DNA of 64,000 bases. It comes from Candidatus Dojkabacteria bacterium (GTDB lineage: Bacteria > Patescibacteriota > Dojkabacteria > B142 > WJKM01). Both the position numbers and the translations under genes were made by a program. The stretch covers positions 9,977-73,976 of the forward strand of contig JAYRWD010000026.1 of the NCBI GenBank assembly GCA_041918255.1. Direction: 5' to 3'. The notes beneath the pieces are model-generated. The model did no database searches. It had not been told where the DNA came from and saw nothing but the letters and a program-made list of their open reading frames with translations. This document shows positions 9,386-48,461 of the stretch, in pieces; positions within the stretch are counted from its first letter, which is position 1; every line of letters starts with the position of its first letter.

Positions 9386-9467
9386 TGCTACAGGAAAATA
9401 AAATATTACATAGGTAATTATAGAACCAAGCAGTACTATTTTACTAATCCAATCGTTTTATAAACGC

Positions 9468-9494
9468 GAAAAAGACCCTCCGTAGGTCTTTTTA
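9468..9494. terminator. Hairpin with flanking T/A runs, a possible terminator downstream of the 9678..10442(-) gene.
   Basis: AAAGACC-[ctccgta]-GGTCTTTTT, flanked by A/T runs on both sides. Confidence 0.4.
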
Positions 9495-9677
9495 GCTGTT
9501 TAGTTCGGTCGAGCCACCTCAAATTTGAGGTTTATTGGTTCGTTTAACACAATGAAATCTTACCAGCGTATCCTTTCCAGGTCAATTTTATTTAAACTTT
9601 CTAAATATACACTTAAAAACTACCTCGCTGATCAAAGTCCTTATCTAACATATCTTTTCGATCGTAAAGGGCTTGCC

Positions 9678-21562: not shown

Positions 21563-21769
21563 TTCGAGATTTTTATATTTAATATCTATAATAAAGAAGA
21601 GTTAGTAGGAGCTGTGGATATGTTGTTAAATACCCTAAATTAAAATAAAGAGGCACACTTTCGACTCGTATAACTATGTGAACAACTAAATGTAAAGTTA
21701 TTTTTAAAGAACTAATATCCTTATTTAGATAGCAAAAACAGCGAATATATTTCTGAACACAAGTATCCG
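21563..21769. promoter_or_regulatory. AT-rich dnaA-dnaN intergenic region with a DnaA-box-like site, a candidate oriC element.
   Basis: TGTGGATAT at 21613..21621 matches 8 of 9 positions of the complement of TTATCCACA, and the region has very AT-rich flanks. Confidence 0.45.
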
Positions 21770-23164
21770 TTAGACTCCCAGCGAGACGTTAAAACCCTCT
21801 CGAATTCTCATAATTTGTTCTTCAAATCCCTTATTTAATTCTAACATCCCTTTGATTTTATCAATTCCGTGCATTATGGTGGTATGATCTTTTCTTTTTA
21901 GCATTTCGGCAATTTCCTCCAGTTTGTAGCCAAAATCTTCTCGCATGATAAACATTGCTACCTGCCTAGCTAAAGCTATTTCAGCTTTTCGTGTTTGTCC
22001 GAGTATTTGGTTTTTTGGGACGTCAAATTCTTTAGAAATAATACTAATTAATTCCTTTGGTTTAATTTTGATACGTTTACTCTGAGGATCGAGACCTAAT
22101 ATATTTGCGGCTTCATCAATAGAAAGATGAGTTTGATGAATTTGATCATAAAGGGCTAATTGTTGTAGAGAGCCCTCAAGACGTCTTACGTTATCTGTGA
22201 TATGGCGAGCAATATATTCTAATAATTCATGAGGGAGGTCCATATTTAACTGTTGGGCTTTTTTCTCTACTATTGCCATTCTTGTTTCAAAGTCAGGAGC
22301 TTCTATCTGTACCACCATACCTCCCTGGAAACGAGATAAGAGACGTACTTCTAACCCTTTGATCTCTTCGGGTGGACGATCGGATACAAACACAAGCTGC
22401 TTGTTTTGATTGTGAAGTGCGTTGAAAGTATTAAATAATTCATCTTGCGTTTGTTCCCACTTATAAATCATTTGAATATCGTCAATTATTAATAGATCAA
22501 GTTGACGATATCTATTCCTAAAATCGCGGGCTTTCCCTGTTTGAATAGAAGAGACCATCTCGTTTAAAAAATTTTCGCTTGGTTTGTACAGGACCTTTTT
22601 ACCTGGATTTTTTTCTAATAATTTTATGCCAATGGCCTGTGCTAAATGTGTCTTCCCAAGCCCGGTTTTTCCATATATAAATAAAGGGTTGTAGGCCATC
22701 CCTGGTTTCTCGATCACCGCGCAACAAGACGCATGAGCAAGACGATTTGAGGGGCCAACTACAAAATTGGTGATCGAGAATTTTGGATTAATATTAGCCT
22801 CGGTAGCAATCTGTGTCTGATTGAGGTTTTCCCCTTTGTGAGTATTGAGAAGGGGTGCTCGAGCTATATCTTTTGATTCTATTTTTGGGGAGAGTTCGTT
22901 GACGAGATTTTTTGCAATTTCAAAATCAACTTCTAATTCTTCTCCAGCAACATAGGAAAGGGTTTTCTGTATAAGGTCAAGATATTTTTTTCTTAACCAA
23001 TCAGACATGTAGCTGTTCTTTACCCCAACAACAGCTCTTTTTCCTGTAATATTCATGAGCTCAGTTGGTATAAACCAAGTTTTAAAGTGAGGTGGAGAGT
23101 CAAGTTTTACTTCGATTTGGGCTAATGTTGTTTTCCAGAGAACCTGCAAATCTTGTTGCTTCAT
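21770..23164 (-). CDS. dnaA: Chromosomal replication initiator DnaA
   Basis: Walker A GKTGLGKTHL, AAA+ sensor motifs, and a C-terminal DNA-binding domain with ...HTTIMHGIDKI. Confidence 0.9.
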   Translation of the reverse strand: MKQQDLQVLWKTTLAQIEVKLDSPPHFKTWFIPTELMNITGKRAVVGVKNSYMSDWLRKKYLDLIQKTLSYVAGEELEVDFEIAKNLVNELSPKIESKDIARAPLLNTHKGENLNQTQIATEANINPKFSITNFVVGPSNRLAHASCCAVIEKPGMAYNPLFIYGKTGLGKTHLAQAIGIKLLEKNPGKKVLYKPSENFLNEMVSSIQTGKARDFRNRYRQLDLLIIDDIQMIYKWEQTQDELFNTFNALHNQNKQLVFVSDRPPEEIKGLEVRLLSRFQGGMVVQIEAPDFETRMAIVEKKAQQLNMDLPHELLEYIARHITDNVRRLEGSLQQLALYDQIHQTHLSIDEAANILGLDPQSKRIKIKPKELISIISKEFDVPKNQILGQTRKAEIALARQVAMFIMREDFGYKLEEIAEMLKRKDHTTIMHGIDKIKGMLELNKGFEEQIMRIREGFNVSLGV

Positions 23165-28514: not shown

Positions 28515-30632
28515 GTGATTATTATTCGATCCGTTATGTTTCAAAAGAGATTGATAAAGAAAATATTAAAGGTGTGTTGTGTGCTTTTCGTATTAACAGG
28601 GTTTTTTATTGGCATGGGTCCTGTCCGCGGGGAAGGTCAAACAAGGGAATTCTGTGAGAAGGTTAGCGTGGTTGTTAGTACGGATAATGTGGATGAGGAG
28701 CAGAGTGTTATTGAAGTAGATTCAAATTTCATTCCAATTAAGCCTTATAAATTTAAGATACAAGTTAATCCGGATGCGTTTGTTGGGTGGAGTGATGCTG
28801 ATATGGAGATACGGATCGAGACAGATGCTATTTCAAGCTGGAATGACCCAGAACCAAATGATCCAAGTTTTATAATTAATACATATACAGCGAATGCTTT
28901 GTATGCAGAATTTAGTAGCAGATCAATTGAGGAGCTGGGAATGGGGCCATTTGCGTATATGTTAATGGAAAAGGGAACTAAAAAGGAATTTAAAATGAAA
29001 CGCAATAATAATGAAGAATTAGCCGATTGTGGCAAGATTATTGACGTCGTTCCATCTGATTATGTATCTAATAAGTGTAGTGATAGAAATCTTACCGCAG
29101 GTGCTTGGAAAGTTCCAGGATATTTCCAATGTAACTATAATAATGAAGGTTGGGATGTAAACACGTTTTCCACCTGTGATGCACAACAAGTTCGGCCCAC
29201 TGACGAGCTGTGTAGCGCATTGTTTAATGATAAGCTTACCGACGATAATACAGTATTCTGTTCAAAGTGTAAGACTGAAGCGGATTTACCAGGGTATGGT
29301 ACTACTCATCTTTATGGGGAATTGTGCGAACTTGGAGAGGGAAAGTGCGGGTATGATACTGGTTTAGTATGCCGAACTGTTGGATTGCAGAATTTATGTG
29401 TAAATAGTGATAAGCTTTGGGTTCGTGAAGATTGTATAGTTGGGGCAGATGAGTGTGTCGAAAAGGACAATGGGGGTTACACGGTCAAGTGTATTCAAAC
29501 GCAGCCATATACTTCTGTACCTGCTAATCCTTTGCAGCTCGCACAGATTATTGATCCGCCAGCAAGTAATAAATATTATGGAGTTGGGGTTATAGGTTCT
29601 ATGGGAGAATGTAAGTCACTGCAATATTTGGACAAAGTAGGCTGTGACACAGATCCCTACTGCCAAGGAAAAGTTGACGATGGTAATCCAGCAATAGTTG
29701 CATATAACTATGAGCTTGGAAAATGTATAAACAAAACTTATTGTGACTTTGGTTATTCATACGAAGAGTTTCCTAACGAAGAAGATGAAAACGTTCGGGG
29801 GACAGATGGACAAATTAGCATTGGATTAACCAAGGAAACCAAAGATCGGGGATATTCTGGGATTAGTGCAACATTATCTGGATTAGCCGGAAAAGAGATA
29901 AGCAAAGAGGCGGTGGGAAGTTTGAAATTTGAAAATATCCCATATGGTGAGGGTATCAAATATACTCTTAAGGTTAGTATCATTCCCGCTTCGCGGGGCG
30001 CAGGGATGATGGGCGGTTTACTTATTCATTCAAGTGCGCAAGCACCAGTAGTGTGTACCAAAACTAAGAGCATTGAGATGTTAGAAAAATTTAAAATAAT
30101 TGATCTTGAAGTCACAATAGACAAGGATGGAAAATGTACGTTAACGGTTGCCGAAGATTCTAGTTCAATTTCTCCCTCTTCATATGTTTCCAATATTGGC
30201 ATTGAAGGATGTGGTGACAGCCTAAGTTGCATCAATTGTTTAATTAGAAAAGACGCAACAAACTTCGAAAAGTTTACAAGTCTTGAAGAAGCCGTTGCCG
30301 CCAATGCAGGAGGCGAGGATAAAATTTATAGGACCAATAATATTTATACAGCGCTAGGGTGTATCGATCCCAGTGATCAGGGGATTATAGTAAGATTGTT
30401 ACAGATTTCTCTAGGTATAGTAGGAGGAATTACGGGGGCGCGTTTCGGACAGGCGGCTTACAAGTTTGGCAAAGGCGAGCCTGAGTCTACCAAGGAAGCA
30501 TGGGAAATAATCTGGTCCGCAATTTTGAGCCTTCTACTTATTGCATTCTCGGTAGTAGGTTTTCGATTTATCGGAATTAATCTATTCAAATTACTTACTC
30601 CCGGAACAGTAGAGATACCTTCTCCAAAGTAA
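28515..30632 (+). CDS. Large secreted Cys-rich protein that ends in a pilin-like (TrbC/VirB2-topology) paired-TM hairpin.
   Basis: A 705-aa product. An N-terminal signal anchor is followed by about 560 aa with more than 40 Cys, and the C-terminus is IVRLLQISLGIVGGITGARFGQAAY-[loop]-WEIIWSAILSLLLIAFSVVGFRFIGINLF. This has the same topology as the five genes that follow. Confidence 0.6.
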   Translation: MIIIRSVMFQKRLIKKILKVCCVLFVLTGFFIGMGPVRGEGQTREFCEKVSVVVSTDNVDEEQSVIEVDSNFIPIKPYKFKIQVNPDAFVGWSDADMEIRIETDAISSWNDPEPNDPSFIINTYTANALYAEFSSRSIEELGMGPFAYMLMEKGTKKEFKMKRNNNEELADCGKIIDVVPSDYVSNKCSDRNLTAGAWKVPGYFQCNYNNEGWDVNTFSTCDAQQVRPTDELCSALFNDKLTDDNTVFCSKCKTEADLPGYGTTHLYGELCELGEGKCGYDTGLVCRTVGLQNLCVNSDKLWVREDCIVGADECVEKDNGGYTVKCIQTQPYTSVPANPLQLAQIIDPPASNKYYGVGVIGSMGECKSLQYLDKVGCDTDPYCQGKVDDGNPAIVAYNYELGKCINKTYCDFGYSYEEFPNEEDENVRGTDGQISIGLTKETKDRGYSGISATLSGLAGKEISKEAVGSLKFENIPYGEGIKYTLKVSIIPASRGAGMMGGLLIHSSAQAPVVCTKTKSIEMLEKFKIIDLEVTIDKDGKCTLTVAEDSSSISPSSYVSNIGIEGCGDSLSCINCLIRKDATNFEKFTSLEEAVAANAGGEDKIYRTNNIYTALGCIDPSDQGIIVRLLQISLGIVGGITGARFGQAAYKFGKGEPESTKEAWEIIWSAILSLLLIAFSVVGFRFIGINLFKLLTPGTVEIPSPK

Positions 30633-30688
30633 CTGAGCAAAAGAAGGTAAAACAAGGTAAAATATTCATATAAAATATTAGAACTAGA

Positions 30689-31063
30689 GTGATGAGAGTG
30701 GTGCGGACCATAAAATCAAAACTTCTTGCGACAGCTGTTTTCGTCAGCACTTTTTCAATATTTGCTTTGAGGGTCGTACACGCCGTAGCTATTCCAGACC
30801 CAATAGGAAAAGATTTTCTAACCATCTTCAACGATGTCACCGGTCTCATTAAACCAATAACTGTACTTACCTTCCTAGCGACCTTTTTTTATGGTGGATA
30901 TACATGGATGACAGCAGGGGATAGCGAAGATGCGGTAAAAAAGGCCGGGAAAATTCTCACCACGTCAATTATCGGACTGATAATTATATTCCTAGCCCCA
31001 TCCTTAGCCGAACTTGTTGCAAGTTTGCTTGGAGTGAGGCAAATTATTGAATTTCCTAATTAA
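30689..31063 (+). CDS. TrbC/VirB2-like pilin-topology protein (signal peptide plus two TM helices), minimal version.
   Basis: A 124-aa product. It has a roughly 34-aa signal peptide ending AVA, helix 1 ITVLTFLATFFYGGYTWM, a short charged loop, and helix 2 ILTTSIIGLIIIFLAPSLAELVASLL. Confidence 0.6.
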   Translation: MMRVVRTIKSKLLATAVFVSTFSIFALRVVHAVAIPDPIGKDFLTIFNDVTGLIKPITVLTFLATFFYGGYTWMTAGDSEDAVKKAGKILTTSIIGLIIIFLAPSLAELVASLLGVRQIIEFPN

Positions 31064-31065
31064 CG

Positions 31066-31896
31066 ATGATGGATACAAATTTTCTTCGTAGTGCTAAAAC
31101 AATCTTAATTATTTTATGTGTTACTGGAACTGTCTACTTTGTTTCGCAGACCGGATATGTAAAGGCGGAGGGGGAAATATTAGATATCAAATGTGCTAGG
31201 GAAAGGATCCTAAATCCCACCGGTTGTTATGCAAGTGGCGAGAAAGATAGTCCAACAAGCAGTTTTAGTTTTTCGGGTACCGAGGAGAAAGGAGAGTTGG
31301 GGGGTTGTAAGGATCAAGAAAACAGCGAAAAATTTATGTGCGAATTAAATAAATTTTGCACTGGCTCTGGAGAGGAAAAAGATCAAACCTTTGGAAAAGA
31401 CGGATTAAATTACTCGGGGACCACTTTGCGATTCACTCAGGCCAACCTACCCAAGCTGATTAGAATGGCGCTCACAATCATTTTTTCCCTATTAGGCATC
31501 ACTGCACTCTTTATGGCTATTTACGGAATAATGAAATGGTTCTATGCCGTTCGCGGAGGTGGGGACGTTTCAAAGATGACAACATACTTTATGAATGGAA
31601 TATGGGGAGTATTTTTCGCGGCAGGAAGCATAGGCTTTACATATATGTTGTTTTGGGTTTTCGGGTATCGGGATAATATATTTGATTTCGGTGCTGTCTT
31701 TGATGAATTATATAGCGTAGATTGCGAAGCGGTTGTTAGCGAAAACGGAGATCCGGTAGACCCTACGCAAGTGCAAGCATTATGTGATAAATATAACCTT
31801 TCGTGTATGTATGTTCCGGGCAAATGTGTAGAGAGAGTGGCAGATTTCGATAGCTGTACTTCTAAGCCAAAAACAAGCAATATGAGGGTTACATAA
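31066..31896 (+). CDS. Pilin-topology paralog with a Cys-containing N-ectodomain and a Cys-rich C-tail.
   Basis: A 276-aa product with a signal peptide. Its TM hairpin is MALTIIFSLLGITALFMAIYGI / IWGVFFAAGSIGFTYMLFWVF. A Cys-rich tail follows. Confidence 0.55.
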   Translation: MMDTNFLRSAKTILIILCVTGTVYFVSQTGYVKAEGEILDIKCARERILNPTGCYASGEKDSPTSSFSFSGTEEKGELGGCKDQENSEKFMCELNKFCTGSGEEKDQTFGKDGLNYSGTTLRFTQANLPKLIRMALTIIFSLLGITALFMAIYGIMKWFYAVRGGGDVSKMTTYFMNGIWGVFFAAGSIGFTYMLFWVFGYRDNIFDFGAVFDELYSVDCEAVVSENGDPVDPTQVQALCDKYNLSCMYVPGKCVERVADFDSCTSKPKTSNMRVT

Positions 31897-31935
31897 GATA
31901 AGCCTATCCAGAACGTCTATAAATGTTACGCCAAT

Positions 31936-32688
31936 ATGGGTATGAAAAATAAAATATATTTATCATTCGCAACGCTCCTCACACTGTTTTCCTTTGCTAC
32001 GAGGGTAGCAGCTCAGGTTAATATTGATGTCCCAGACGGAAAAACCAAAATTGAGATAGATTATTTCAAACCATCGGCCTTTACAGATTTGATGAAGTTT
32101 GGGGCTTTAGGATTTGTGGGATATATCGCCATTTTCCTTGTTGGCTTTATGTTTATATATATCACCGTCCAAATAGCCATTTCCGCGGGCAAAATTATTC
32201 AAAGCCAAGGAGATTCTGGCAAACTCGAGGAAGGAGTTTCCGAAATCCAAAAATTTATGCGAGGGGTTTTGATAGCAATGTTATTTTTATTGGCATTTGT
32301 GGCGGTTGGAATCTTTATGGGAAGCGGAAATATTATGAAGTGGCCTTCTAAACTCGGACAATGTGGCGGGGGCGGGGTTTTGTTTAACGCAGAATATGAC
32401 GCCTCCCTGAAGAATGAAAAGATCTATGAGAAGGAAACGCAAGTACTATGTTGTAGAAATTTTGAAAGTTTGGACTTTGGGGACGAAAATACCGTCTTGG
32501 TTTCTCCAGTAGGGGGTATTAGAGGATTTAGCAAGGATGGACCTTCAGCAGGAAATCCATTCGCTATAGTCGTGGGAACCGAAACGGACGGAGGCTGGAT
32601 GTTTATCCTACCATCTGCAACAGGAGAATCTAGAGATTTACAATCGACCCAATCTGACCAAGAGAAATATGTTTGTTCGATTTATTAA
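31936..32688 (+). CDS. Pilin-topology paralog
   Basis: A 250-aa product with a signal peptide (…ATRVAAQ). Its TM hairpin is FGALGFVGYIAIFLVGFMFIYITV / VLIAMLFLLAFVAVGIFMG. A C-tail with CGGGG and CC follows. Confidence 0.55.
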   Translation: MGMKNKIYLSFATLLTLFSFATRVAAQVNIDVPDGKTKIEIDYFKPSAFTDLMKFGALGFVGYIAIFLVGFMFIYITVQIAISAGKIIQSQGDSGKLEEGVSEIQKFMRGVLIAMLFLLAFVAVGIFMGSGNIMKWPSKLGQCGGGGVLFNAEYDASLKNEKIYEKETQVLCCRNFESLDFGDENTVLVSPVGGIRGFSKDGPSAGNPFAIVVGTETDGGWMFILPSATGESRDLQSTQSDQEKYVCSIY

Positions 32689-32721
32689 GATTGCAACCTG
32701 AGGAGTTTCTTTGTATTATAT

Positions 32722-33387
32722 TTGAGAAAGCTAAAAATAATTAATATTATTTTAAAAAATATGAAGCAATTTAAAACATTGGCAAAAGTTGGTTTGGGTT
32801 TAGCTCTATCTTTGGCATCAACATATACAGTTGTAGCCGCTCAGTGTGGAGGTTGGTTGCCAGAATTCCTACAGGGGTTTGTGTGCGAGGATCCAGTAAA
32901 CAATTTAACAAACAGGGTGAAAGTGTTTTTCGTACTAGCTTTCGGAGCAGTAATACTAATGGGAGTTGTGTATACAATTTCGGCTGCGTTGAAGTTCATG
33001 CGAAGTAAGGGTGAAAGCGGAGAGATTGAAAATAGCCAAAAAGCAGTCACGGCGATTTTCTACGGAGTTGCTTCGCTTTTTGTTGGAGTGATTGGTATGG
33101 TTGTGGTCACACTATTCTTTTCTCCCACGGTTATTTTCCCTCAGCAAATTTGTATACAAGCCCCGGATAGCTACGGCTGTTTTGCCTGTCGTAATCCTAA
33201 GAAGGGTTCAAATGTTTCTTTCGTAGATATTTGTAATGCATGTAACGATGTGTCCGAGGCACCACTAAGTGATATTAGTGGAAATGTGACGTGTGCTGAT
33301 GATGTTCCCGCGAATATCTCCGATGATGATATAGTTCTAAAGCTTGATGAGGTAAAAACGGTTGGAACGAAAAAAGTTGGGGTCTAG
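32722..33387 (+). CDS. Pilin-topology paralog
   Basis: A 221-aa product with a signal peptide (…VVAAQ) followed by CGGW...C. Its TM hairpin is VFFVLAFGAVILMGVVYTI / AIFYGVASLFVGVIGMVVVTLFF. A Cys-rich tail follows. Confidence 0.55.
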   Translation: MRKLKIINIILKNMKQFKTLAKVGLGLALSLASTYTVVAAQCGGWLPEFLQGFVCEDPVNNLTNRVKVFFVLAFGAVILMGVVYTISAALKFMRSKGESGEIENSQKAVTAIFYGVASLFVGVIGMVVVTLFFSPTVIFPQQICIQAPDSYGCFACRNPKKGSNVSFVDICNACNDVSEAPLSDISGNVTCADDVPANISDDDIVLKLDEVKTVGTKKVGV

Positions 33388-33586
33388 ATTGGAACAGGAT
33401 TATTCAAATCCGCTTTCTTCAAACTGAATAAAAATTGACTTTATGCGATACCCGAAAAAGGCAACAAATGTGTGTCACACTGAGTTCATCGAGGTGCGAC
33501 ACTATCATATTTTTACCCCTCGACGTGCTTCTGCCAGAGGCAGACAGACAGGGTGACATAATAAATGTAGTTTCGTATAAAGTCTA

Positions 33587-34540
33587 ATGAAGTATAAATT
33601 GCTTTCTTTGTTTGCCATTGCTCTGACTGTTAGCACGGTTTTTTTCACCACGCCAGGAATCGCTCTGGTTAGTGCGCAAAGTCAAGAGGAAGTAAATCCG
33701 CTTTTCGATCTCAGTTCAACCGATCCAATCTATATAAATCTCAATTACGACTGTACAAATATTAAGTGGTCGGAAGGTGCGATAGGGATTTATAGAAAAG
33801 TCTATAAGTCCGGGGACAAATATTATGAAGCCAATCCTCGAATAAACGAAATCCAGCAATATCTAAATGGCAAGCCCTATGCCGAGACCTACTTTCTTTT
33901 TGAAGGCGAAACGGGATTGAGTTTAGAAGAGAGTTCTATTAACAAAAATGATTTCAATGCCACGCCATTCAACGAAATAAAGAGGATTGCTCCCTCGCCT
34001 TTTATTATTCCTAGTGATAATCCAGAGCCTATTTTGAAAGAATACGTTGGCATGCCCCTGTGTGATGGTGCCTATTCCTTTAGTGGAAACGATTTTCTTG
34101 CTCCAAATCAAAAGATGAGAGCAAGTCTCGATAATCAGAACGAAAGTTTCGGAGAGCCAAAAAGTTTTGTCCCAGCAAATTTCGTACCCCCTGTATTGCA
34201 GCAAGCGGAAAATTACTTCGTGGAGATAATATACATTTTTTGGAGTATTATTGGACTAGCAGCAGTTGGGCAGTTATTTGTCATAGGTTTGAAAATCCTG
34301 ACATCAAGCTTTAGCCCGGAGCAAAAAGGAGCTACGTTACGCTCGGTAGCATTATGGGTGGTCGGACTGGCATTGGCCATAGTGGCTATTCCACTTTTGC
34401 AATTTATTTTTAGAATTTTGGACATACAAGACACTAGATGCTTCAAATATACTGAGAATAATGAATTAGTTTACGATCTGACCGTTCCGGGTTTCACGTT
34501 CTTCTTTAATGATACATGTACGTCCGAGGAGAGCTTGTAG
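33587..34540 (+). CDS. Pilin-topology paralog with a roughly 170-aa ectodomain.
   Basis: A 317-aa product with a signal peptide (…LVSAQSQ). Its C-terminal hairpin is FVEIIYIFWSIIGLAAVGQLFVIGL / LRSVALWVVGLALAIVAIPLLQFIF. Confidence 0.55.
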   Translation: MKYKLLSLFAIALTVSTVFFTTPGIALVSAQSQEEVNPLFDLSSTDPIYINLNYDCTNIKWSEGAIGIYRKVYKSGDKYYEANPRINEIQQYLNGKPYAETYFLFEGETGLSLEESSINKNDFNATPFNEIKRIAPSPFIIPSDNPEPILKEYVGMPLCDGAYSFSGNDFLAPNQKMRASLDNQNESFGEPKSFVPANFVPPVLQQAENYFVEIIYIFWSIIGLAAVGQLFVIGLKILTSSFSPEQKGATLRSVALWVVGLALAIVAIPLLQFIFRILDIQDTRCFKYTENNELVYDLTVPGFTFFFNDTCTSEESL

Positions 34541-34608
34541 CGAACCTGTCCTTGCCAGAACTTCCCTAAATCCGTGATAATGTGTTTCACTAAATAACCC
34601 AAATTATT

Positions 34609-35769
34609 ATGTTCAAATTCATACATACAGCCGATCTTCACCTTGGGGCGAAGGCAGGATGGCTAGGTACTCGAGCAACAAGCCATAGAAAATTATTATT
34701 AGATACCTTTGCCCAAATTTGTGACGAGACGCGAAATAGGGGGGCAAACGCATTAGTTATAGCAGGGGATCTTTTTGATACCCCATATCCAAGTACTAAT
34801 ACCATAAATTATGTGCAATCTCGTTTAGAGGCATTAGCAAGGGGGGGCACAATGGTTTTAATTGTGGCAGGCAATCACGATCGCTATATTGATTCTTCGG
34901 TATATTCCAAACTGAAATTCTCAAATCCTCTCATCCATGTTTTCTCTCCAGAAAAAGTTGAGGTAATTGAGTCAACGAATTTTGCGGTTAGGTTTTTTTC
35001 GCAGAGTATAGCTCAAAGATTCTCAACATCCTCAACCCTTGGGCGACTCATAGATGCTCGCAAGAATGGTAGGATGGACGGCGGAGGTTTTACAGATATT
35101 GCGATTGTTCACGGATCAGTAGAATTAGGATCGAATACGACCAACCACGGGATATCAAAGGAGGAAATTACAAATTCTGGTTTCGCATATATAGCACTTG
35201 GCGATTGGCACGGATTATTGGAAGTATCAAACAAAGCAACAAAAGCTTGGTATCCAGGCTCACCTCAACCATTGGCTTTTGATCAGAAAATGTTTGGTCA
35301 TGTTCTGGAAATATCGGTCGAGCCCGGTGTAAATGAAAGAGTAGAAGTTATGCCAATTAAGATTTCTGAGTTATTTACACAGGAAGTTACATTTGATTGT
35401 TCAAAACAGGATAACCACCAAGGAGGCGGACAATCTTTATATGAACGTATAGACAGGACTATTACCGGACTATCAAATAAGAATTTGTTACTTGAAATGA
35501 AATTAAGTGGCATCATAAAGCCAGAAATGCCAATTAATTTAGGGGAGATATTGGAGGCCGATACGGATAAATTTTATTTATTACGAATCATAAATCTAAC
35601 GAAGATAGGTTTAACACAGGAAGAGATAGAAGCTATACCCGAGACTACGGTTTCTGGAAGACTAATCAGAATTGCTAAACACAGACTTGAGATCGAAAAA
35701 GACGAGAATGTACGCAAAATTATTGAGCAAGCCTTAGTGGAGGGATTACAAAAATTAAGCGAATTGTAG
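34609..35769 (+). CDS. SbcD/Mre11-family metallophosphoesterase, YhaO(SbcF)-like
   Basis: Calcineurin-like motifs IHTADLHLG, AGDLFD and AGNHDR. It is 386 aa and lies directly upstream of the SMC-like ATPase. Confidence 0.75.
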   Translation: MFKFIHTADLHLGAKAGWLGTRATSHRKLLLDTFAQICDETRNRGANALVIAGDLFDTPYPSTNTINYVQSRLEALARGGTMVLIVAGNHDRYIDSSVYSKLKFSNPLIHVFSPEKVEVIESTNFAVRFFSQSIAQRFSTSSTLGRLIDARKNGRMDGGGFTDIAIVHGSVELGSNTTNHGISKEEITNSGFAYIALGDWHGLLEVSNKATKAWYPGSPQPLAFDQKMFGHVLEISVEPGVNERVEVMPIKISELFTQEVTFDCSKQDNHQGGGQSLYERIDRTITGLSNKNLLLEMKLSGIIKPEMPINLGEILEADTDKFYLLRIINLTKIGLTQEEIEAIPETTVSGRLIRIAKHRLEIEKDENVRKIIEQALVEGLQKLSEL

Positions 35770-35855
35770 AGGATTTTTAGCGCGCCCGAAAACGCAAGCA
35801 TAACGTAACGATTATAATTTTTTATACTTTTTTGCAACACGTTGAAAAATAAATA

Positions 35856-37967
35856 ATGATCATAAAAAGTCTTCGAATAAACAACTTCAGACTCTTTCAG
35901 GATAGACAACTTTTTTTCTCTAGTGGTCTGAATATTGTGATTGGACCAAATGAAGCCGGAAAATCCACGCTTGTTTCTGCTCTGAAACACGCTCTGTATA
36001 CGGATCCTGTATCTAAATCAAAAATGATAGCAGCGGATATATCTGGATGGGACGAAGGGGATTCGCGTAAGGCGGAAATTGAAATAGAATTTGAAGCCGA
36101 AGGGATAAATTACGTATTTGAAAAGAACTTTCTGGGTAAAGAGACATTCTTAAAAGCTAAGAATGAAAATAGATGGCAATATAAAGGTAAAGAAGCGCTT
36201 GAAAAAATTGTTGAAATTTATGGCATACCCAATGTTGAAATGTTTGAAACTTCGGCCTCACTAAACCATGAAGATCTAGAAAAAGTACGAAAAAGTACAA
36301 CATTTGTAGCAGCGCTTCAGAATGCGTCTACCCAAGGAAGTAGGGATGGAAGAATCCAAGACATTTTGAGGCAGATCGATTTAGAGATTCAAAATCTTCG
36401 ACGTGGTATGGTTGCGCTGGCAAAAAATCCCGGGTTAATCCGAAGCGCTATGGATGATTTAAAGCGGTTAGAAATTGAAAAGGAGGAGAAAGGTGTAAGG
36501 TGGAAAGAACAGCAGGGTTTAATAGAAAAATACAAACAACTTGTAACAAGGAAGGATGAGCTTGAAGTAAAAGAAAAAGAGCTAGCCCGGATCATAGATG
36601 TAAGCGAAACCTATTACCGGAAGCAAAAGGAATATAACGAGATCAATACACAAAGGACTGAATTGGAGGAGAGAATCGAGAAAATCGAAGAGATTGAAGG
36701 AGAGTATAAAAAAATAGCGAATGAGTTGTTAGCGTTTGAATCGGAGAAACGTCAGAGCTACCTTGAAACTCAAAAGATATTAACAGAATATGAAAAAGAA
36801 ATTGATAGCTTAAATAATTCCGTTGCGGTTCTAAAGGGAAAGAAAAGGGAAACCATACTTAAAAAAGCAAAGGAGCAGCAGCTTTTTTTGAAAGGATTGG
36901 GTATTACTCTCGGGCTTGTCGGAATAGTTGCATCAGTGAAATATTGGGAATTCATATTTTTAGGATTGGGAGGAGTAGTTATGTTTCTACTTGCGGTCAA
37001 AATTCAAAAAATTTACGAAAAGTTTTTGCGTGTAAATGAGGATAGTCAGATAGAAGGTCTGAGGGAGCAGATTTTGCAGGAGAATACTAAGATAGAAATG
37101 GCACTATCGAAAATAGATATGGTTACGATTCAAGAATTGGATCACACAATACACGAATATGAAAAAAAATTGGTTAGGAAAGAAGAAAAGGGAAATGCTC
37201 TGATAAGCCTACTTGGAAATGAGAATCTTGAAAAACTGAAACAAAAAAAGAGTATCTTGGCGCAAGAGGCAGAGGGCATAAGGGCGGTATACCTAACGGA
37301 GGAAATCAAAATGGGTGTTTTAGACACTAGAGCCTTATCAGTTGATAGGGGTAATTATGTACAGGTGAGAAGAGAGCTTGAAGATGTGAGGGCGGATATA
37401 GCAAGACTTGAAGGAAGATTGGGAGTGGAGCAAATCTCGTTAGAAGAAATATCGGAAACAGAAGATCGGTATGATTTAGCAAAAGAGAAGTATAAAAACA
37501 GCAAAAATAAATTGGCAGTACTTACGTTGCTAAGCGATATGCTAGGCGAAGCTACGCAGGACACAACGGTGTTGGTGGCTCATGCGGTACGGGAAATCGT
37601 CGAAAAATATATAAAAGTAATTACAGAAGGAAAATATACTAGGGCAAGGTTGGATCGAGAATTAGAATTAGAAGTTTATTCTCCAGAAAAAAATGACTGG
37701 ATAAATCCCATGAAGTATCTGTCGTCGGGGGCGTGCGATCAGATTTTTTTCTTGGTACGGTATGGTTATTTCAAGCTTCTGTCTAGCGGGAAGCGGCCCT
37801 TTTTGGTATTAGATGATGCGTTTTTAGCGTTTGATAGTATTCGGATGAAGAGTGCTATGGAGCTTCTCAAAGTTTTAGCTGAGGAAAATCAAATAATTTA
37901 TTTAACCCATCGAAAGAATCTAGCTAAATACGGAGATACGCTGTACCTGTGCGAATGGTATAGATAA
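35856..37967 (+). CDS. SbcC/Rad50-like SMC-family ATPase with a central transmembrane hairpin, YhaN(SbcE)-like
   Basis: N-terminal Walker A IGPNEAGKST. There are long coiled coils. A mid-protein hydrophobic pair, GITLGLVGIVASVKYWEFIFLGLGGVVMFLLAV, takes the place of a CxxC zinc hook. The C-terminus carries the signature LSSGACDQ, Walker B LVLDDAFLAFD and the H-loop YLTHR. Confidence 0.7.
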   Translation: MIIKSLRINNFRLFQDRQLFFSSGLNIVIGPNEAGKSTLVSALKHALYTDPVSKSKMIAADISGWDEGDSRKAEIEIEFEAEGINYVFEKNFLGKETFLKAKNENRWQYKGKEALEKIVEIYGIPNVEMFETSASLNHEDLEKVRKSTTFVAALQNASTQGSRDGRIQDILRQIDLEIQNLRRGMVALAKNPGLIRSAMDDLKRLEIEKEEKGVRWKEQQGLIEKYKQLVTRKDELEVKEKELARIIDVSETYYRKQKEYNEINTQRTELEERIEKIEEIEGEYKKIANELLAFESEKRQSYLETQKILTEYEKEIDSLNNSVAVLKGKKRETILKKAKEQQLFLKGLGITLGLVGIVASVKYWEFIFLGLGGVVMFLLAVKIQKIYEKFLRVNEDSQIEGLREQILQENTKIEMALSKIDMVTIQELDHTIHEYEKKLVRKEEKGNALISLLGNENLEKLKQKKSILAQEAEGIRAVYLTEEIKMGVLDTRALSVDRGNYVQVRRELEDVRADIARLEGRLGVEQISLEEISETEDRYDLAKEKYKNSKNKLAVLTLLSDMLGEATQDTTVLVAHAVREIVEKYIKVITEGKYTRARLDRELELEVYSPEKNDWINPMKYLSSGACDQIFFLVRYGYFKLLSSGKRPFLVLDDAFLAFDSIRMKSAMELLKVLAEENQIIYLTHRKNLAKYGDTLYLCEWYR

Positions 37968-38137: not shown

Positions 38138-39883
38138 TTGCCCGTGATTTTGAAAAAGATCAAGTATCAAAGGTTTACGATTTCAATTCTCCTTTTGAGT
38201 ATTTTTTTTGCGATTTCGACCATTCCAACTAATGCTCGCACCATTTCTGAAATTGAGTCGGAAATAAAACAGAAACAACAAGAACTTACTGAAGTTAATA
38301 CGACAATTGCCGAACTAGAAGAGAATATTATTAAGCAAAAAGCTGAGATGGAAAATGTTGTCGGAAGGCGTAATACCCTGAGGGCAGAATTAGCATTGAA
38401 CGCAAACCAAAAAAGTCTGATAGAGGAAGAGCTGCGCGACTTAAACAAGAACGAGATCTTAACAAAATTAGAGCAAGAAAAGAGAATTCTGACGCAGGAC
38501 CGATTAGTTTCTGAGGCATATGTGACATGGAGACAAATGAATACTTTTCGGATTTTGCTTCAGACCAATTCGGAAGATATTGTCAAAATTTCGACATATC
38601 AGAACTCCGTTTCTGAGCGCGAACAGAAAAATATTGAGCAACTCGAAACAGAGTTAGAAGCAATACAAAAAGAGTTGAACGAAAATGAAATTAAAAAGGC
38701 ACAATATCAGGCCGAAATTGATAAAATTGACGCGCAAGTCAAGGTAACAGAAAGATTATTGGCAGAGCTAGATTCAAAAATTTTAGCTAATCAAAACGAC
38801 GTTGCGAATTATCGAGGTAGATTAGGATCTATTCAATCCGCGATCGACGAATTGACGGCGGAGCAGAAAAGAATATTAGAGGCCGAATCTGTATTTTTGG
38901 GTAAGGTCAGCAATGGGGGCACAAAGACTATTAAACAAGGACAAATCTATTTTCAGGGTATTGGAAGGGAGGCCTATCAGGGACATGGTGTAGGCATGTC
39001 TCAGTTCGGAGCTTTGGGTGCGGCACTGGCCGGATGGGATGCGGAGAAAATAGTTGAATTTTATTATCCTGGTGCGGAGGTTGAGACGTATGGAAAAGGC
39101 AAAAAAATAAGTGTAGAAGGATATGGAAGTATGGATATTGAAGATTATGTAGCGGGAGCTGGTGAGGTACCCGACCATTCTTGTGAAGAATTAGATTTAA
39201 AATTTGACTCAAAGAATGTGTGGCAATGTTGGCCAGAAGAAGCCATAAAAGCTCAGGCAATAGCTTTCCGAACATACGGGATTCATAGCACAATCAGCGG
39301 AGGTACCATATGTACTTCGGCTAAATGTCAGGTATATAAAGGTGGGACGAATAAAAAATGGGCGGCCGAGGCCACAGAGGGTAGAGTTATCATGTATGAT
39401 AATGAACCAATAGCAGCTTTTTATAGCTCTGACAATCATAATGGATGGGGGAATGGAAATAATGATACTGTGTGGAGCAGTATGTCCGGTGTAGGAGAAC
39501 CAAAAAAATATTTGCGTGCAGTAAATGACAAAAAGATTGCTTTTCATTATACCTATACGGATTGGGGATGGAGAACAAACGGATATTCAATTTCAGATGT
39601 TGATAAAATGTTAACTTGGAGTGTGAATTCAGAAAAATCTACGAGTGGTTACAAAGAATTTTTAAAAACAATAAAAACAAAAGTAGGGACTCTAAAGGGC
39701 ATGGATTTTGAGAGGGATCCCTCTGGAAGGGTGAAAAGAGTCAAATTGATTGGGGAAAAGGGAGGTGAGTATATAGCTGGATGGCTTTTCAAATCTGCTT
39801 GGAATATATGGGTAGGGAATGAAATGCCCAGTGGGGAAAAGGATTTCATTTATAGCCTGACATATTACATGCGAGTTGGATAA
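38138..39883 (+). CDS. Secreted coiled-coil protein with a C-terminal SpoIID/LytB-like peptidoglycan hydrolase domain.
   Basis: A signal peptide, then about 230 aa of heptad-rich coiled coil, then the SpoIID-type motifs GHGVGMSQFGALGAA and AFYSSDNHNGWGN. Confidence 0.6.
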   Translation: MPVILKKIKYQRFTISILLLSIFFAISTIPTNARTISEIESEIKQKQQELTEVNTTIAELEENIIKQKAEMENVVGRRNTLRAELALNANQKSLIEEELRDLNKNEILTKLEQEKRILTQDRLVSEAYVTWRQMNTFRILLQTNSEDIVKISTYQNSVSEREQKNIEQLETELEAIQKELNENEIKKAQYQAEIDKIDAQVKVTERLLAELDSKILANQNDVANYRGRLGSIQSAIDELTAEQKRILEAESVFLGKVSNGGTKTIKQGQIYFQGIGREAYQGHGVGMSQFGALGAALAGWDAEKIVEFYYPGAEVETYGKGKKISVEGYGSMDIEDYVAGAGEVPDHSCEELDLKFDSKNVWQCWPEEAIKAQAIAFRTYGIHSTISGGTICTSAKCQVYKGGTNKKWAAEATEGRVIMYDNEPIAAFYSSDNHNGWGNGNNDTVWSSMSGVGEPKKYLRAVNDKKIAFHYTYTDWGWRTNGYSISDVDKMLTWSVNSEKSTSGYKEFLKTIKTKVGTLKGMDFERDPSGRVKRVKLIGEKGGEYIAGWLFKSAWNIWVGNEMPSGEKDFIYSLTYYMRVG

Positions 39884-43151: not shown

Positions 43152-45623
43152 ATGATTCAAGCTGTCCGCATATTAGCACAAATGGATTTTTTCTCCTTAG
43201 TTATGGACCCTGCGTCATTCGTAGATGAAGCAAGCAATGACCCTTCGTTTCTGATAATGGTTTGCCTTATGGCAATATTGGGTCTTGTAATTTTGATTCT
43301 AGCGTATAAGCTATTTATGAAGGGAGTGATGCATGCTTCTATGGAAAAAAAGTCATTAAGCTCAGTTCTCTTTGAAGTTAGACTTCCGCATACGAATGAG
43401 GTCGAGATACAATCAGCCGATCAAATGCTAACGGGGTTTCTTGGCATTGAAAGAGAACTGAAGGGGCTACAAAAATGGTTTGGTTCGAAATATTATATTA
43501 GTTTTGAAATTGTAGCGTTGCCTGAGACTATAAGATTTTTTGTAAATGTCCCAAAGAAATTAGCGACACTTGTAGAAAAACAAATAAATGGTACTTATCC
43601 TGAGGGTGAAGTAATAAGAACGGATGAATATAATATATTTGGACCTGGGCAGAAGGTAGAATTCTGTTCATTGAAGTTAGCTGAGGATCCGTATAAGCCC
43701 ATCCGGACATATGAAGAGCTTTCGCAAGATGGTTTAAGCAGCATTACCTCCGTTATGAATAAAATGGGTCCTGGTGATGCTATGGCGTTACAGATTGTTA
43801 TTACTCCCTCATCAGGAGAGTGGCGCAAAGATGGTCGAAAATACGTAAATAAAATACGAGAGAATAATTCTGATCCGGAAAAATCAAAGATAGAGGTAGA
43901 AGACGAAATACTTGCTGCAATTGAAAAGAAGGCAGAAAAGCCTGGATTTGAATCAGTTGTGAGGATTGTAAGTGTTTCTACGTTAGGAGAAATAGCTAAA
44001 TCAAATTTGGATAACATGGTTTACGCGTTTGATCAGTTTGCTAATCAAAATGGAAATAGGTTTAAAAAAGTTTCATACAAGAAAAGAAAGGAACAAAGGG
44101 AATTCATGAAGTCCTTTTTGTACAGATTCCCCTCGAAAGCGATGATTTTAAACTCCTCTGAATTAGCTACTATTTTTCACTATCCAAATAGCAAAATTAC
44201 TACTCCGCACATACATTGGCTTACCTCGAAACGTGCTCCAGCAAGTGGAGAAGTCTTATCTCATTTCGAAAATGCAGGGGTATACCTAGGAGTGAATGAA
44301 TATAGGGGCACGAAAAGAAAGATATTCATGCGCTATGACGATAGGCGACGACATTTTTATTATGTTGGTAAAACAGGTTCTGGTAAATCTGTAATGTTGC
44401 AGCATATGGCCTATCAGGATATTTTAAACGGACAGGGATTAGCATTCCTGGATCCTCACGGGGACGCCGTTGAATGGCTTATGGATCGAATACCGGCCGA
44501 ACGTGTCGAGGACATTATTTATTTCAACCCTGCGGATACGGATCGTCCAATAGGTATGAATATCATGGAATGGTATACCGAACATGATAAACACATTATT
44601 GTGAATGGTTTCTTGGGTCTTCTTAATAAATTATTTGATCCTTACAATCAAGGTATTACTGGACCACGTTTCGAGCAGGCCGTAAGGAATGCGATGTTGA
44701 CTGTTATGGCAAAAAAAGGCACTAGCTTGGCTGAAGTGATGACACTTTTACAAAATGACAAGATAGCAGAGAAATACTTTCCATATTTAAACGATGATAT
44801 TGTAAAACGCTATTGGACAGAACAAATAGCCCATACCCAGGAATTTCACAAATCGGAAATTTTAGGATATATAACCTCTAAGTTTGACAGATTTATCACA
44901 AATAAATTGATGCGAAATATTATTGCTCAAAGCAAATCTGGCTTTGATTTCCGTACAGTTATGGATGAAGGCAAGGTTTTATTAATTAACTTATCCAAGG
45001 GATTAATCGGGGAAGAAAACTCACAATTCCTAGGGCTATTATTGATACCCAAAATGTTGCAAGCAGCGATGAGTAGGGCGAATATTGAAGCTGGATCAAG
45101 GCGGGATTTTTATCTATATGTAGACGAGTTCCAGAATTTTGCGACGCCTGATTTTGCTCAAATTCTTTCGGAGGCTCGAAAATACAGGCTTAACCTAATT
45201 GTCGCTAACCAATACATCGCCCAAATGACGGATGAGATCCGTGATGCTGTTTTCGGTAATGCAGGGTCTATAGGTAGTTTCAAAGTGGGAGTGAATGATG
45301 CGCAGTACTTGGCGAATGAATTTGAGCCAGTATTTAATCAAAACGACTTAATCAATTTGGAAAATTTGAATATGTATATCAAGTTACTTGTAAAAGGTGA
45401 ATATCCTCCTCCATTTTCGTTAAAATTAGATACGGATTTGGTCTTCAAAACACCACCGAATAAAGAAATTGGTCAGCTTGTTAGGGAACTATCGCGACTG
45501 AAGTATGGGAAAGACGCAAAGCTGGTCGATGCCGAGATAAAGGCAAGAGAACAAGAAGATGGACCAGGCAATATTGTATCACAACCACCGCCTCCGGCGT
45601 ATAAGCCACCGCTGAGTAGCTAA
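43152..45623 (+). CDS. VirD4/TraG/TraD-family type IV coupling-protein-like P-loop ATPase
   Basis: An N-terminal TM helix. Walker A YYVGKTGSGKS is followed by LDPHGD, which resembles the T4CP DPKGE motif. Walker B is YVDEFQNFA, with GNAGSIGSFKVG beyond it. The product is 823 aa. Confidence 0.55.
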   Translation: MIQAVRILAQMDFFSLVMDPASFVDEASNDPSFLIMVCLMAILGLVILILAYKLFMKGVMHASMEKKSLSSVLFEVRLPHTNEVEIQSADQMLTGFLGIERELKGLQKWFGSKYYISFEIVALPETIRFFVNVPKKLATLVEKQINGTYPEGEVIRTDEYNIFGPGQKVEFCSLKLAEDPYKPIRTYEELSQDGLSSITSVMNKMGPGDAMALQIVITPSSGEWRKDGRKYVNKIRENNSDPEKSKIEVEDEILAAIEKKAEKPGFESVVRIVSVSTLGEIAKSNLDNMVYAFDQFANQNGNRFKKVSYKKRKEQREFMKSFLYRFPSKAMILNSSELATIFHYPNSKITTPHIHWLTSKRAPASGEVLSHFENAGVYLGVNEYRGTKRKIFMRYDDRRRHFYYVGKTGSGKSVMLQHMAYQDILNGQGLAFLDPHGDAVEWLMDRIPAERVEDIIYFNPADTDRPIGMNIMEWYTEHDKHIIVNGFLGLLNKLFDPYNQGITGPRFEQAVRNAMLTVMAKKGTSLAEVMTLLQNDKIAEKYFPYLNDDIVKRYWTEQIAHTQEFHKSEILGYITSKFDRFITNKLMRNIIAQSKSGFDFRTVMDEGKVLLINLSKGLIGEENSQFLGLLLIPKMLQAAMSRANIEAGSRRDFYLYVDEFQNFATPDFAQILSEARKYRLNLIVANQYIAQMTDEIRDAVFGNAGSIGSFKVGVNDAQYLANEFEPVFNQNDLINLENLNMYIKLLVKGEYPPPFSLKLDTDLVFKTPPNKEIGQLVRELSRLKYGKDAKLVDAEIKAREQEDGPGNIVSQPPPPAYKPPLSS

Positions 45624-47582: not shown

Positions 47583-48461
47583 CTATAGGGAGGCGGTTTT
47601 GCTGGAATTTAAATTTCGTTTTGTTTTTACCATCTCTAGATACTTTTCAGTGCTGGTAATACGTTTGTGACCTACTATTTCCGCGATTTGTTCAAGTGGT
47701 ACACCGTGTTCCAGCTGGAAGACAATGAAAGTATTTCGTATATCATTGACAGTTGCGTCATCTATACCGGATTTTTTGAACGTATTATTGATAGTTGTAC
47801 GGATATTCCTAATCAATACTTGCTTTCCAGATTTGGTGGTAAATAAGTAGCCTTCGTCATCTTGCGGACGGGGGCGAATTTTGAGATATTTTCTGATAGC
47901 TTCTACGCACGTCTCGTTTAGGATTATAGTTCGGGCCGGATTGCTCGCATAGGATTCGATGGTAGCGGTTGGGACTTTGGCATCAAGCTCGAGCTGGGAA
48001 ATTTTTAACCTGGACAATTCGCCGATCCGCATGCCTGTTTGCAATAAAACTTCTACCATGGCGTAAAGCCTTGGGCTTGATCTAGCCGTATCCCGGAGTG
48101 CTTTATATTCTAGACTATTGAGAATTCGTCTCTGTTTAGTTTCAAACTTTGGATGCACTATACCTTCTGCAATATTGGCGTTTACATGATTTTCGGAGTG
48201 CAAAAATTTGAACAAAGTCCGAAAACTGTTAATTTTTCTAGAAATTGTTTTTAAGGTGAATTTCTGCTCGGTTACCAGCTCTTGGATATATAACTCTAGA
48301 TGGTTTGTTTTGTAATCTGATAATAGAGAAATTTCGTTTTTGTATCTGCCAAATAATTGCTCGATATCCTTCTTGTAGGCTATGATAGTTGAGGGAGAAC
48401 GTTTTTTTTCTTTAAGATTGGCAATAAAGAGTTCTAGAGCTTGAGAATGTGGAATTGACAT
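47583..48461 (-). CDS. Tyrosine site-specific recombinase (XerC/XerD or integrase family)
   Basis: An N-terminal SAM-like core-binding domain. The C-terminal catalytic region is IRNTFIVFQLEHGVPLEQIAEIVGHKRITSTEKYLEM, with the nucleophile Tyr in KYLEM. It is 292 aa. Confidence 0.75.
   Translation of the reverse strand: MSIPHSQALELFIANLKEKKRSPSTIIAYKKDIEQLFGRYKNEISLLSDYKTNHLELYIQELVTEQKFTLKTISRKINSFRTLFKFLHSENHVNANIAEGIVHPKFETKQRRILNSLEYKALRDTARSSPRLYAMVEVLLQTGMRIGELSRLKISQLELDAKVPTATIESYASNPARTIILNETCVEAIRKYLKIRPRPQDDEGYLFTTKSGKQVLIRNIRTTINNTFKKSGIDDATVNDIRNTFIVFQLEHGVPLEQIAEIVGHKRITSTEKYLEMVKTKRNLNSSKTASL

Follow-up and report, generated by a model that had tools for sequence, protein, structure and literature searches.

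A Dojkabacteria relative of the YhaO/YhaN (SbcF/SbcE) nuclease-ATPase pair with a predicted membrane hairpin at its coiled-coil apex

The closest described relatives of the system considered here are two Bacillus subtilis proteins, YhaN and YhaO, which Krishnamurthy et al. named SbcE and SbcF, respectively (PMC2811018). The sbcE mutant is sensitive to DNA double-strand breaks (DSBs) and shows a mild transformation defect, SbcE and YhaO interact in a two-hybrid assay, and both proteins gather at the DNA-uptake pole of competent cells (PMC2811018). SbcE lacks a CxxC motif; it has a conserved "unique central domain", hydrophobic in its first half, and in Escherichia coli neither this domain by itself nor full-length SbcE was soluble (PMC2811018). 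Two-hybrid partners of SbcE include the membrane proteins YabT and SpoIIE (PMC4205851), which hints indirectly at a membrane location. Here, we describe a pair of this type from Candidatus Dojkabacteria bacterium, located in a stretch of 64,000 nucleotides (assembly GCA_041918255.1, contig JAYRWD010000026.1, positions 9,977 to 73,976 of the forward strand), hereafter the window. The pair comprises a YhaO/SbcF-type nuclease of the Mre11/SbcD family (386 aa, 34609..35769) and a YhaN/SbcE-type Rad50/SMC-like ATP-binding cassette (ABC) ATPase of a short-arm subfamily (703 aa, 35856..37967), both on the plus strand, as are all features of the pair given below.

We read this pair, with an overall probability of about 0.7, as a membrane-tethered machine for DNA-end processing that resembles SbcCD and Mre11-Rad50. 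This figure blends three judgements of different strength. That the pair is a divergent, short-armed Dojkabacteria ortholog of the YhaO/YhaN (SbcF/SbcE) module appears, from sequence comparison, close to certain; anchoring of the ATPase apex in the membrane is a prediction that we consider probable; and a function in repair, argued by analogy with Bacillus, is favoured by a narrower balance of the evidence. The pair is a member of a named, little-studied family and not a new kind of system.

The nuclease was assigned from Pfam and NCBIfam models, a match to Thermotoga maritima Mre11 and a motif alignment. It matches Pfam Metallophos at 5e-9 and TIGR00619 (sbcd) at 2.7e-16, the latter with 60.1 bits and thus below the cutoff of 77.65, and the NCBIfam SbcD and Mre11 models both score well under their cutoffs. 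Residues 2-262 align by phmmer to T. maritima Mre11/SbcD structures, covering the catalytic and capping domains. In an alignment of 68 sequences, phosphoesterase motifs I-V (34630..35214) are recognized as ADLHLG (residues 8-13), GDLFD (53-57), GNHD (88-91), VHGS (167-170) and GDWHG (198-202). The metal-ligand positions D9, H11, G53-D54, H90-D91, H168, G198 and H201 are conserved in the 68 partner nucleases and in the window protein, and the motif V variant with Asp199 (GDWH) is common to 15 of these 68 relatives. Judged by its motifs, the nuclease looks catalytically competent.

The ATPase was assigned by Pfam, profile comparison, Foldseek and hhalign, and exceeds the Pfam cutoffs for AAA_27 (PF13514, 44.4 bits against a cutoff of 22), SMC_N and AAA_23. 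Its Walker A motif, GPNEAGKS (residues 30-37, 35943..35966), is conserved in two alignments, A1 and A2, with G30, N32, E33, G35 and K36 invariant in both and S37 invariant in A1. The C-terminal head lobe (37719..37913), delineated by motif reading and alignments, carries the signature LSSGA (622-626), the Walker B motif FLVLDD (649-654), the D-loop AFLAFD (655-660) and the H-loop YLTHR (682-686). The family profile matches both lobes of archaeal and Thermotoga Rad50 heads (E ~1e-31), and the AlphaFold2 (AF2) model, whose top Foldseek matches are chains of the Rad50 structure 7zr1, contains a confident ABC head (predicted local distance difference test score, pLDDT, ~90), long helices at 194-345 and 371-589, and arms of ~150-205 residues. 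The NCBIfam Rad50 model scores the protein at 57 bits against a cutoff of 700. A preliminary description of this DNA, made from the letters alone, had called the two genes a Mre11/Rad50-like pair, and the nuclease with motifs I-V together with the Rad50-type bipartite head bears this out. The same description held the ATPase motifs to be canonical, which is correct for Walker A, the signature, the H-loop and the long helical arms and needs correction at two sites: Walker B ends in DD instead of the canonical DE, a family-wide feature present in 142 of the 148 nearest cluster representatives, and His138 (36267-36269) occupies the position of the Q-loop Gln that most relatives keep. Both substitutions raise the question of the rate, or even the occurrence, of ATP hydrolysis.

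Relatives of the ATPase are numerous and phylogenetically dispersed. All 34 homologs retrieved by word search contain PF13514, a family whose AAA_27 members appear as 'uncharacterized protein YhaN' in JGI annotations, and an exhaustive search returned 222 cluster representatives at E <= 1e-30, nearly all of ~700 aa and with 24-31% identity over the full length. A scan of one genome per species located relatives in Chloroflexota, Limnocylindria, Armatimonadota, Bacillota, Actinomycetota, Acidobacteriota, Proteobacteria and one metagenome-assembled genome of Methanosarcinaceae. Across 81 loci from many phyla, a nuclease homolog accompanies the ATPase in 74 and, where its position could be determined, is encoded upstream of it on the same strand with a single exception; the two genes usually overlap by 4 bp. 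Unbiased clustering of the flanking open reading frames (ORFs) in these 81 loci revealed no further gene family recurring in more than eight of them, which indicates that the conserved unit is a two-gene module.

The link to the Bacillus proteins is provided by a locus of Fervidibacillus halotolerans (L044), in which a 432-aa nuclease and a 986-aa ATPase (hairpin at 473-513) are followed by a YhaM equivalog at 565 bits, a score that authenticates the locus as Bacillus yhaO-yhaN-yhaM. The window ATPase matches this YhaN by BLASTP at 3e-15, with 33-39% identity in the head lobes, and the window nuclease shares 24% identity with the corresponding YhaO over 225 aa. The profile comparison with YhaN, proposed in the preliminary description, agrees: hhalign aligns a profile of the ~700-aa subfamily to Fervidibacillus YhaN with a probability of 98.8% (E 4.7e-17), covering only the C-terminal coil and head.

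Compared with YhaN/YhaO, the window pair shares the nuclease gene directly upstream, the AAA_27 N-terminus, the DD ending of Walker B, the lack of CxxC, and a double hydrophobic segment placed exactly midway along the coiled coil. In contrast to Bacillota YhaN (963-986 aa), the window ATPase measures only 703 aa, so that each arm is roughly 130 residues shorter, and whereas the Bacillus type (~960 aa) has heptad regions of ~300 aa and yhaM downstream, a SpoIID-like gene follows the window pair. Such size and the presence of yhaM mark the Bacillota orthologs and not the Pfam family as a whole, and the window ATPase sits in the populous ~700-aa subfamily. Further differences are an 86-nt spacer between the two genes in place of the overlap typical of YhaO/YhaN loci, the His at the Q-loop Gln position, a host belonging to the candidate phyla radiation (CPR), and a surrounding gene block that is specific to Dojkabacteria and contains type IV secretion system (T4SS)-type genes. 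Both start codons (nuclease MFKFIHTADLH, ATPase MIIKSLRINNF) agree with the N-terminal consensus of the family, and the coordinates coincide with those of the preliminary description.

With SbcCD/Mre11-Rad50, the pair shares the protein superfamilies, the two-gene logic, the Rad50-like head and Mre11 phosphoesterase motifs I-V. It differs in having a hydrophobic hairpin in place of the zinc-hook CxxC, DD rather than DE in Walker B and His138 for the Q-loop Gln, and its proteins score below the NCBIfam equivalog and subfamily cutoffs. No second sbcCD was detected in the 64-kb window, the only stretch searched.

The apex of the coiled coil carries the feature on which the membrane prediction depends. 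The 703-aa ATPase contains no zinc-hook CxxC, its only cysteines being C627 and C699. At its centre, hydropathy analysis identifies a first apolar helix, LFLKGLGITLGLVGIVASV (residues 343-361, 36882..36938), a short loop, KYWE (362-365, 36939..36950), which is predicted to be extracytoplasmic and corresponds to the short, K/R-poor loop of the family, and a second apolar helix, FIFLGLGGVVMFLLAVKI (366-383, 36951..37004). No other segment of the protein is as hydrophobic as these two, which lie at 0.50-0.53 of its length (centre 0.52), and the KD19 hydropathy maximum of the ATPase is 2.12. On the Eisenberg scale, the two helices reach a mean hydrophobicity of 0.70-0.72 with a hydrophobic moment of 0.14-0.17, while 19-mers of the arms reach at most 0.29 in mean hydrophobicity; Hessa-type insertion energies are +1.2 and +1.9 kcal/mol versus +10.6 for the next-best segment. 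Charged residues make up 10% of residues 343-382 against 40% of the coil arms, K/R counts around the hairpin are four before, one in the loop and four after, and two adjacent polar-free 15-mers occurred in 0.02% of 20,000 shuffles. The preliminary description had reported both the missing CxxC hook and two adjacent hydrophobic helices at the apex, and each observation stands, with strictly polar-free runs of just 15 and 16 residues in the helices.

The same architecture recurs in two samples of relatives, a broad one of 110 homologs from many phyla and a near one consisting of the 148 nearest cluster representatives. In the broad sample, 51 homologs have two central apolar runs, averaging 19.3 and 19.9 residues and separated by a loop with a median of 5 residues, often containing Pro; K/R counts there are 2.5 before the hairpin, 0.5 in the loop and 4.25 after it. 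At least one central apolar run is present in 143 of the near representatives and two in 104, the centre of the hairpin falls at 0.513 ± 0.011 of protein length, and K/R counts are 2.9, 0.4 and 3.9, respectively. Across the family, the loop has a median of 2-5 residues and is K/R-poor, a central CxxC occurs in only one of the 148 representatives, and the hairpin is retained by the Dojkabacteria orthologs. The combination of apolar runs and K/R distribution in two independent samples fits a helical hairpin with both termini inside and obeying the positive-inside rule. The helices consist to 36% of Gly, Ala and Ser, and each contains ~2 small-xxx-small motifs, a composition compatible with tight packing, from which we infer that hairpin-hairpin dimerisation may replace the zinc hook.

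Several points weigh against membrane tethering of an active complex. Longer AAA_27 forms, roughly 800-1100 aa and about half of the wider family, have no hairpin, which implies that the fold does not depend on membrane anchoring. The polar-free runs of the window protein are the shortest among the hairpin-bearing homologs tabulated, and its helices reach 19 and 18 residues only when K346 and K382 are counted as interfacial; with runs this short for a full span and insertion energies slightly positive, the hairpin may be monotopic or re-entrant. The apex (330-382) is modelled by AF2, from a 15-sequence alignment, at pLDDT <50 and is therefore uninformative, and the hydropathy scales used in the apex calculations were entered by hand. 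The DD ending of Walker B and His138 make ATPase competence uncertain. As for the literature, SbcE-YFP (yellow fluorescent protein) fusions were reported as nucleoid foci and, in competent cells, as polar foci, rather than as a membrane signal, and membrane insertion was not proposed by the authors who described SbcE (PMC2811018). Among the papers searched, which did not include the ABC-ATPase classification of Krishnan et al. 2020, none was found that tests or discusses membrane insertion of the family. The preliminary description had spoken of a membrane-anchored SbcE/YhaN class described in Bacillus; the class assignment is supported by the hhalign result, while the published account describes a central domain and no anchor (PMC2811018). 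YhaN has been recovered in a surface-shaving set of Staphylococcus haemolyticus, where software labelled it "Membrane" (PMC7137321); this label and the surface-shaving detection are the only membrane support found in the literature, and insertion is a prediction.

A first alternative is a soluble hinge, in which the apolar helices would be buried between two or more protomers as a functional substitute for the zinc hook, within a cytoplasmic, nucleoid-bound complex. It accommodates the nucleoid foci of SbcE-YFP and its authors' treatment of the centre as a novel domain (PMC2811018), the failure of AF2 to produce a confident hairpin, and the short apolar runs and slightly positive insertion energies of the window protein. 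However, a buried core does not need polar-free faces all round on both helices, and those of the window ATPase are uniformly apolar and non-amphipathic, as their low moment at high hydrophobicity indicates. The lengths of ~19 residues, the loops of 2-5 residues and the positive-inside K/R pattern of the family likewise speak against it, as does the insolubility of SbcE and its central domain in E. coli (PMC2811018). On balance, we regard the soluble hinge as unlikely.

Under the preferred reading of a membrane-tethered complex, the hairpin would insert in the cytoplasmic membrane in an in-out-in topology, fixing the apex of the coiled coil there, and the heads with the bound nuclease dimer would be suspended in the cytoplasm some 22-26 nm from the membrane, for arms of 150-176 residues at ~0.15 nm each. 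The small-residue helices may pack hairpin on hairpin within the bilayer and in this way assume the dimerising role of the zinc hook. As in SbcCD, DNA ends or hairpins would be clamped for cleavage when ATP drives the heads to engage, and the substrate would be DNA located at the membrane or entering through it. By analogy with sbcE mutants of B. subtilis, the pair may serve in DSB repair, with a minor part in the handling of incoming DNA.

The genomic setting is chromosomal. The genes dnaN and dnaA (20435-23164, minus strand) coincide with a change in the sign of the GC skew at about 22 kb, which places a replication origin inside the window and makes the region origin-proximal; every gene between 26.4 and 47.3 kb is co-directional with replication. 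The closest named relatives of the window DnaA (~60% identity) all belong to Candidatus Dojkabacteria (candidate division WS6), that is, to Patescibacteria/CPR, and the window also encodes infB, dnaJ, smpB, tRNA synthetases and pcrA/uvrD. A sigma-70-like promoter sequence, TTGCCA-18-GATAAT (34552..34581), lies 28 nt 5' of the nuclease start and, with 10 of 12 positions, is the top match of the region; it is weak evidence, further weakened by the finding that promoter-like sites are fewer in the region than in its own shuffles. Elsewhere in the window, a 2345-aa ORF (54672-61709, plus strand) probably encodes a giant surface protein; it contains right-handed beta-helix/NosD repeats and a CarboxypepD_reg-like domain, and its N-terminus is receiver-like at a sub-threshold score.

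The neighbours of the pair include several genes of secretion type. Directly upstream are six secreted or membrane ORFs (28515..34540, plus strand), among them a T4SS-type (VirB2-like) pilin; they represent context and are not a proven part of the system, and each of them has a homolog in colinear position in other Dojkabacteria. The pilin (30689-31063) matches PF18895 at 2e-11, and the hydrophobic C-terminal region of ORF 33587-34540 matches T4SS_pilin weakly. Downstream, at 38138..39883 (plus strand), is a Dojkabacteria-specific 581-aa protein, mis-named 'Smc' in one source, which combines a long coiled coil with a hydrophobic segment on the N-terminal side and a SpoIID domain on the C-terminal side; within the Dojkabacteria class, it is always the gene directly following the pair, and of its ~100 relatives, every organism-named one is Dojkabacteria or WS6. 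A VirD4/TrwB-type coupling-protein-like ATPase (DUF8128, 823 aa; 43152..45623, plus strand) is encoded 5.2 kb downstream of the pair and is syntenic in loci L166-L170. This ATPase is of the TrwB/DotL type and is very widespread in CPR metagenomes, with at least 598 confirmed relatives (598 of 600 among the matches listed); outside Dojkabacteria, it is unlinked to smpB, SpoIID or the pair. In the window, the syntenic block ends with a tyrosine recombinase that has a Phage_integrase domain and a SAM-like N domain (47583-48461, minus strand), and the same holds for L166, L168 and L170; this conserved position suggests a XerC/D-like enzyme rather than the integrase of a mobile element.

Colinear loci came from two sources, the closest relatives in the exhaustive search and loci anchored on the SpoIID-like protein. 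In Dojkabacteria, the block reads infB, secreted ORFs, T4SS pilin, four membrane ORFs, nuclease, ATPase, SpoIID-like protein, a protein of ~740 aa, SmpB, a small ORF, the DUF8128/TrwB-type ATPase and the integrase. It is colinear in L166, L167 and L168, where each ORF of the pilin cluster is homologous and in order, and partly so in L165 and L169; L171 shows no synteny, and the contig of L085 ends where the gene before SpoIID would lie and is uninformative there. Its retention in Dojkabacteria argues that the adjacency of T4SS-type genes is not accidental within the class, and a view of this adjacency as strain-specific or accidental was withdrawn in light of the class-wide synteny of L166-L169. 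The notion that Dojkabacteria carry the pair only sporadically or gained it by horizontal transfer, which had arisen from nearest word-search relatives of only 28-29% identity, was also rejected, as the syntenic orthologs evolve fast; even within the colinear Dojkabacteria loci, ATPase identity is only 28-37%. The window and the 99%-identical strain L084 seemed to differ in gene content, a difference that proved to be an artefact of scaffold gaps of ~100 bp.

This arrangement raises a second alternative, namely that the Dojkabacteria pair is a working part of the surrounding relaxase-less T4SS-like apparatus, stationed beside the channel and coupling ATPase, where it would cut, trim or degrade DNA taken from or delivered to a host cell, for example for nucleotide salvage. 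A 2025 survey describes the T4SS clusters of Patescibacteria as mostly relaxase-less, containing several VirB2-like pilins and often situated near dnaA (PMC12102498). With a relaxase usually absent, the DNA-processing step of these clusters is unassigned, and the survey is silent on any SbcCD- or YhaN-like pair (PMC12102498). Preservation of the colinear block in L166-L168 despite the low ATPase identity, the order pair, SpoIID and VirD4-like protein in L169, and the presence of SbcE and SbcF at the uptake pole of competent B. subtilis (PMC2811018) are in keeping with such a role. The components are separable, however: L169 keeps the pair, SpoIID and the TrwB-like ATPase with unrelated genes upstream and no pilin cluster, whereas L170 keeps the pilins, SpoIID and the TrwB-like ATPase and lacks the nuclease and ATPase. 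Linkage of the pair to a T4SS was found in none of the 81 loci of other phyla and in none of 80 CPR loci anchored on relatives of the window VirD4-like protein (metagenome loci, mostly from more distant CPR, that also have no SmpB or SpoIID nearby), and unrelated neighbours flank the pair in L001, L082 and L083. None of the window ORFs run against Pfam was identified as a VirB4. Since the block includes infB and smpB and adjoins oriC, vertical conservation of an origin-proximal region explains the synteny equally well. The preliminary description had placed the pair inside a putative translocation locus, which is accurate as to colinear position in L166-L168 and does not extend to an obligatory association, and we give a working role in the T4SS-like apparatus a small chance.

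Some further observations concern these loci. At the position of the pair, L170, a more distant Dojkabacteria genome whose block also retains SmpB, encodes a 518-aa coiled-coil ORF (8448-10004, plus strand) with a central double hydrophobic segment and no Walker A, whose C-terminus loosely resembles the Walker B and H-loop of the family; its candidacy as a YhaN homolog is unsupported, with an hhalign probability of 4%. In L169 (7739-9848, plus strand), from a WS6 OLB20-like genome, the YhaN-like gene is split by a frameshift next to an A-run into ORFs of 433 and 255 aa, reflecting either an assembly error or a pseudogene. A gene for an AddA-like UvrD-helicase/PD-(D/E)xK protein directly follows the pair in L001 (12039-14921) and directly precedes the pilin cluster in L168 (1-1976); it is possibly a recurrent DSB-repair neighbour, too infrequent to appear in the clustering of flanking ORFs.

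The ATPase shares an ABC/SMC-type head with Lamassu LmuB, Gabija GajA and Septu/retron PtuA, and a coiled coil with LmuB, and PADLOC accordingly reports matches to the LmuB (3.8e-18), GajA and PtuA models, all confined to the generic P-loop/SMC head; for the nuclease, PADLOC gave no match. SbcCD-like complexes are able to restrict foreign DNA. Nevertheless, an anti-phage or anti-plasmid defence module that combines an SMC-like ATPase with a nuclease (cf. Lamassu, Gabija, Wadjet) and is stationed at the membrane against entering DNA is very improbable, given that the pair lacks the effectors and partners of Lamassu, Gabija and Septu and has an Mre11-type nuclease partner instead, that the 81-locus clustering disclosed no recurrent defence genes nearby, and that vertical inheritance with fixed, housekeeping-like synteny in Dojkabacteria and adjacency to yhaM in Bacillaceae do not resemble a defence island.

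A bolder proposal, which we advance only tentatively and consider unlikely, is that in Dojkabacteria, and perhaps beyond them, the membrane-tethered YhaO/YhaN pair might be what processes DNA for the T4SS-like apparatus of Patescibacteria, which is origin-proximal and has no relaxase, and that substitution of a transmembrane hairpin for the Rad50 zinc hook might represent an ancient and widespread membrane confinement of Mre11/Rad50 chemistry. In Dojkabacteria, the neighbours of the pair, T4SS-type pilins together with a cell-wall hydrolase and a coupling ATPase, offer a weak but concrete link to DNA exchange in episymbionts with a relaxase-less T4SS. More generally, hundreds of lineages, from Bacillota to CPR, possess a Rad50-like ATPase with a hairpin-like apex set at the centre of the protein with ~1% positional precision. 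If this hairpin does insert, DNA-end processing would have a compartment at the membrane surface, and Rad50-like proteins would have a way of dimerising at the apex without zinc. The window pair itself is an ordinary, very divergent member of this family, which merits more attention than it has received.

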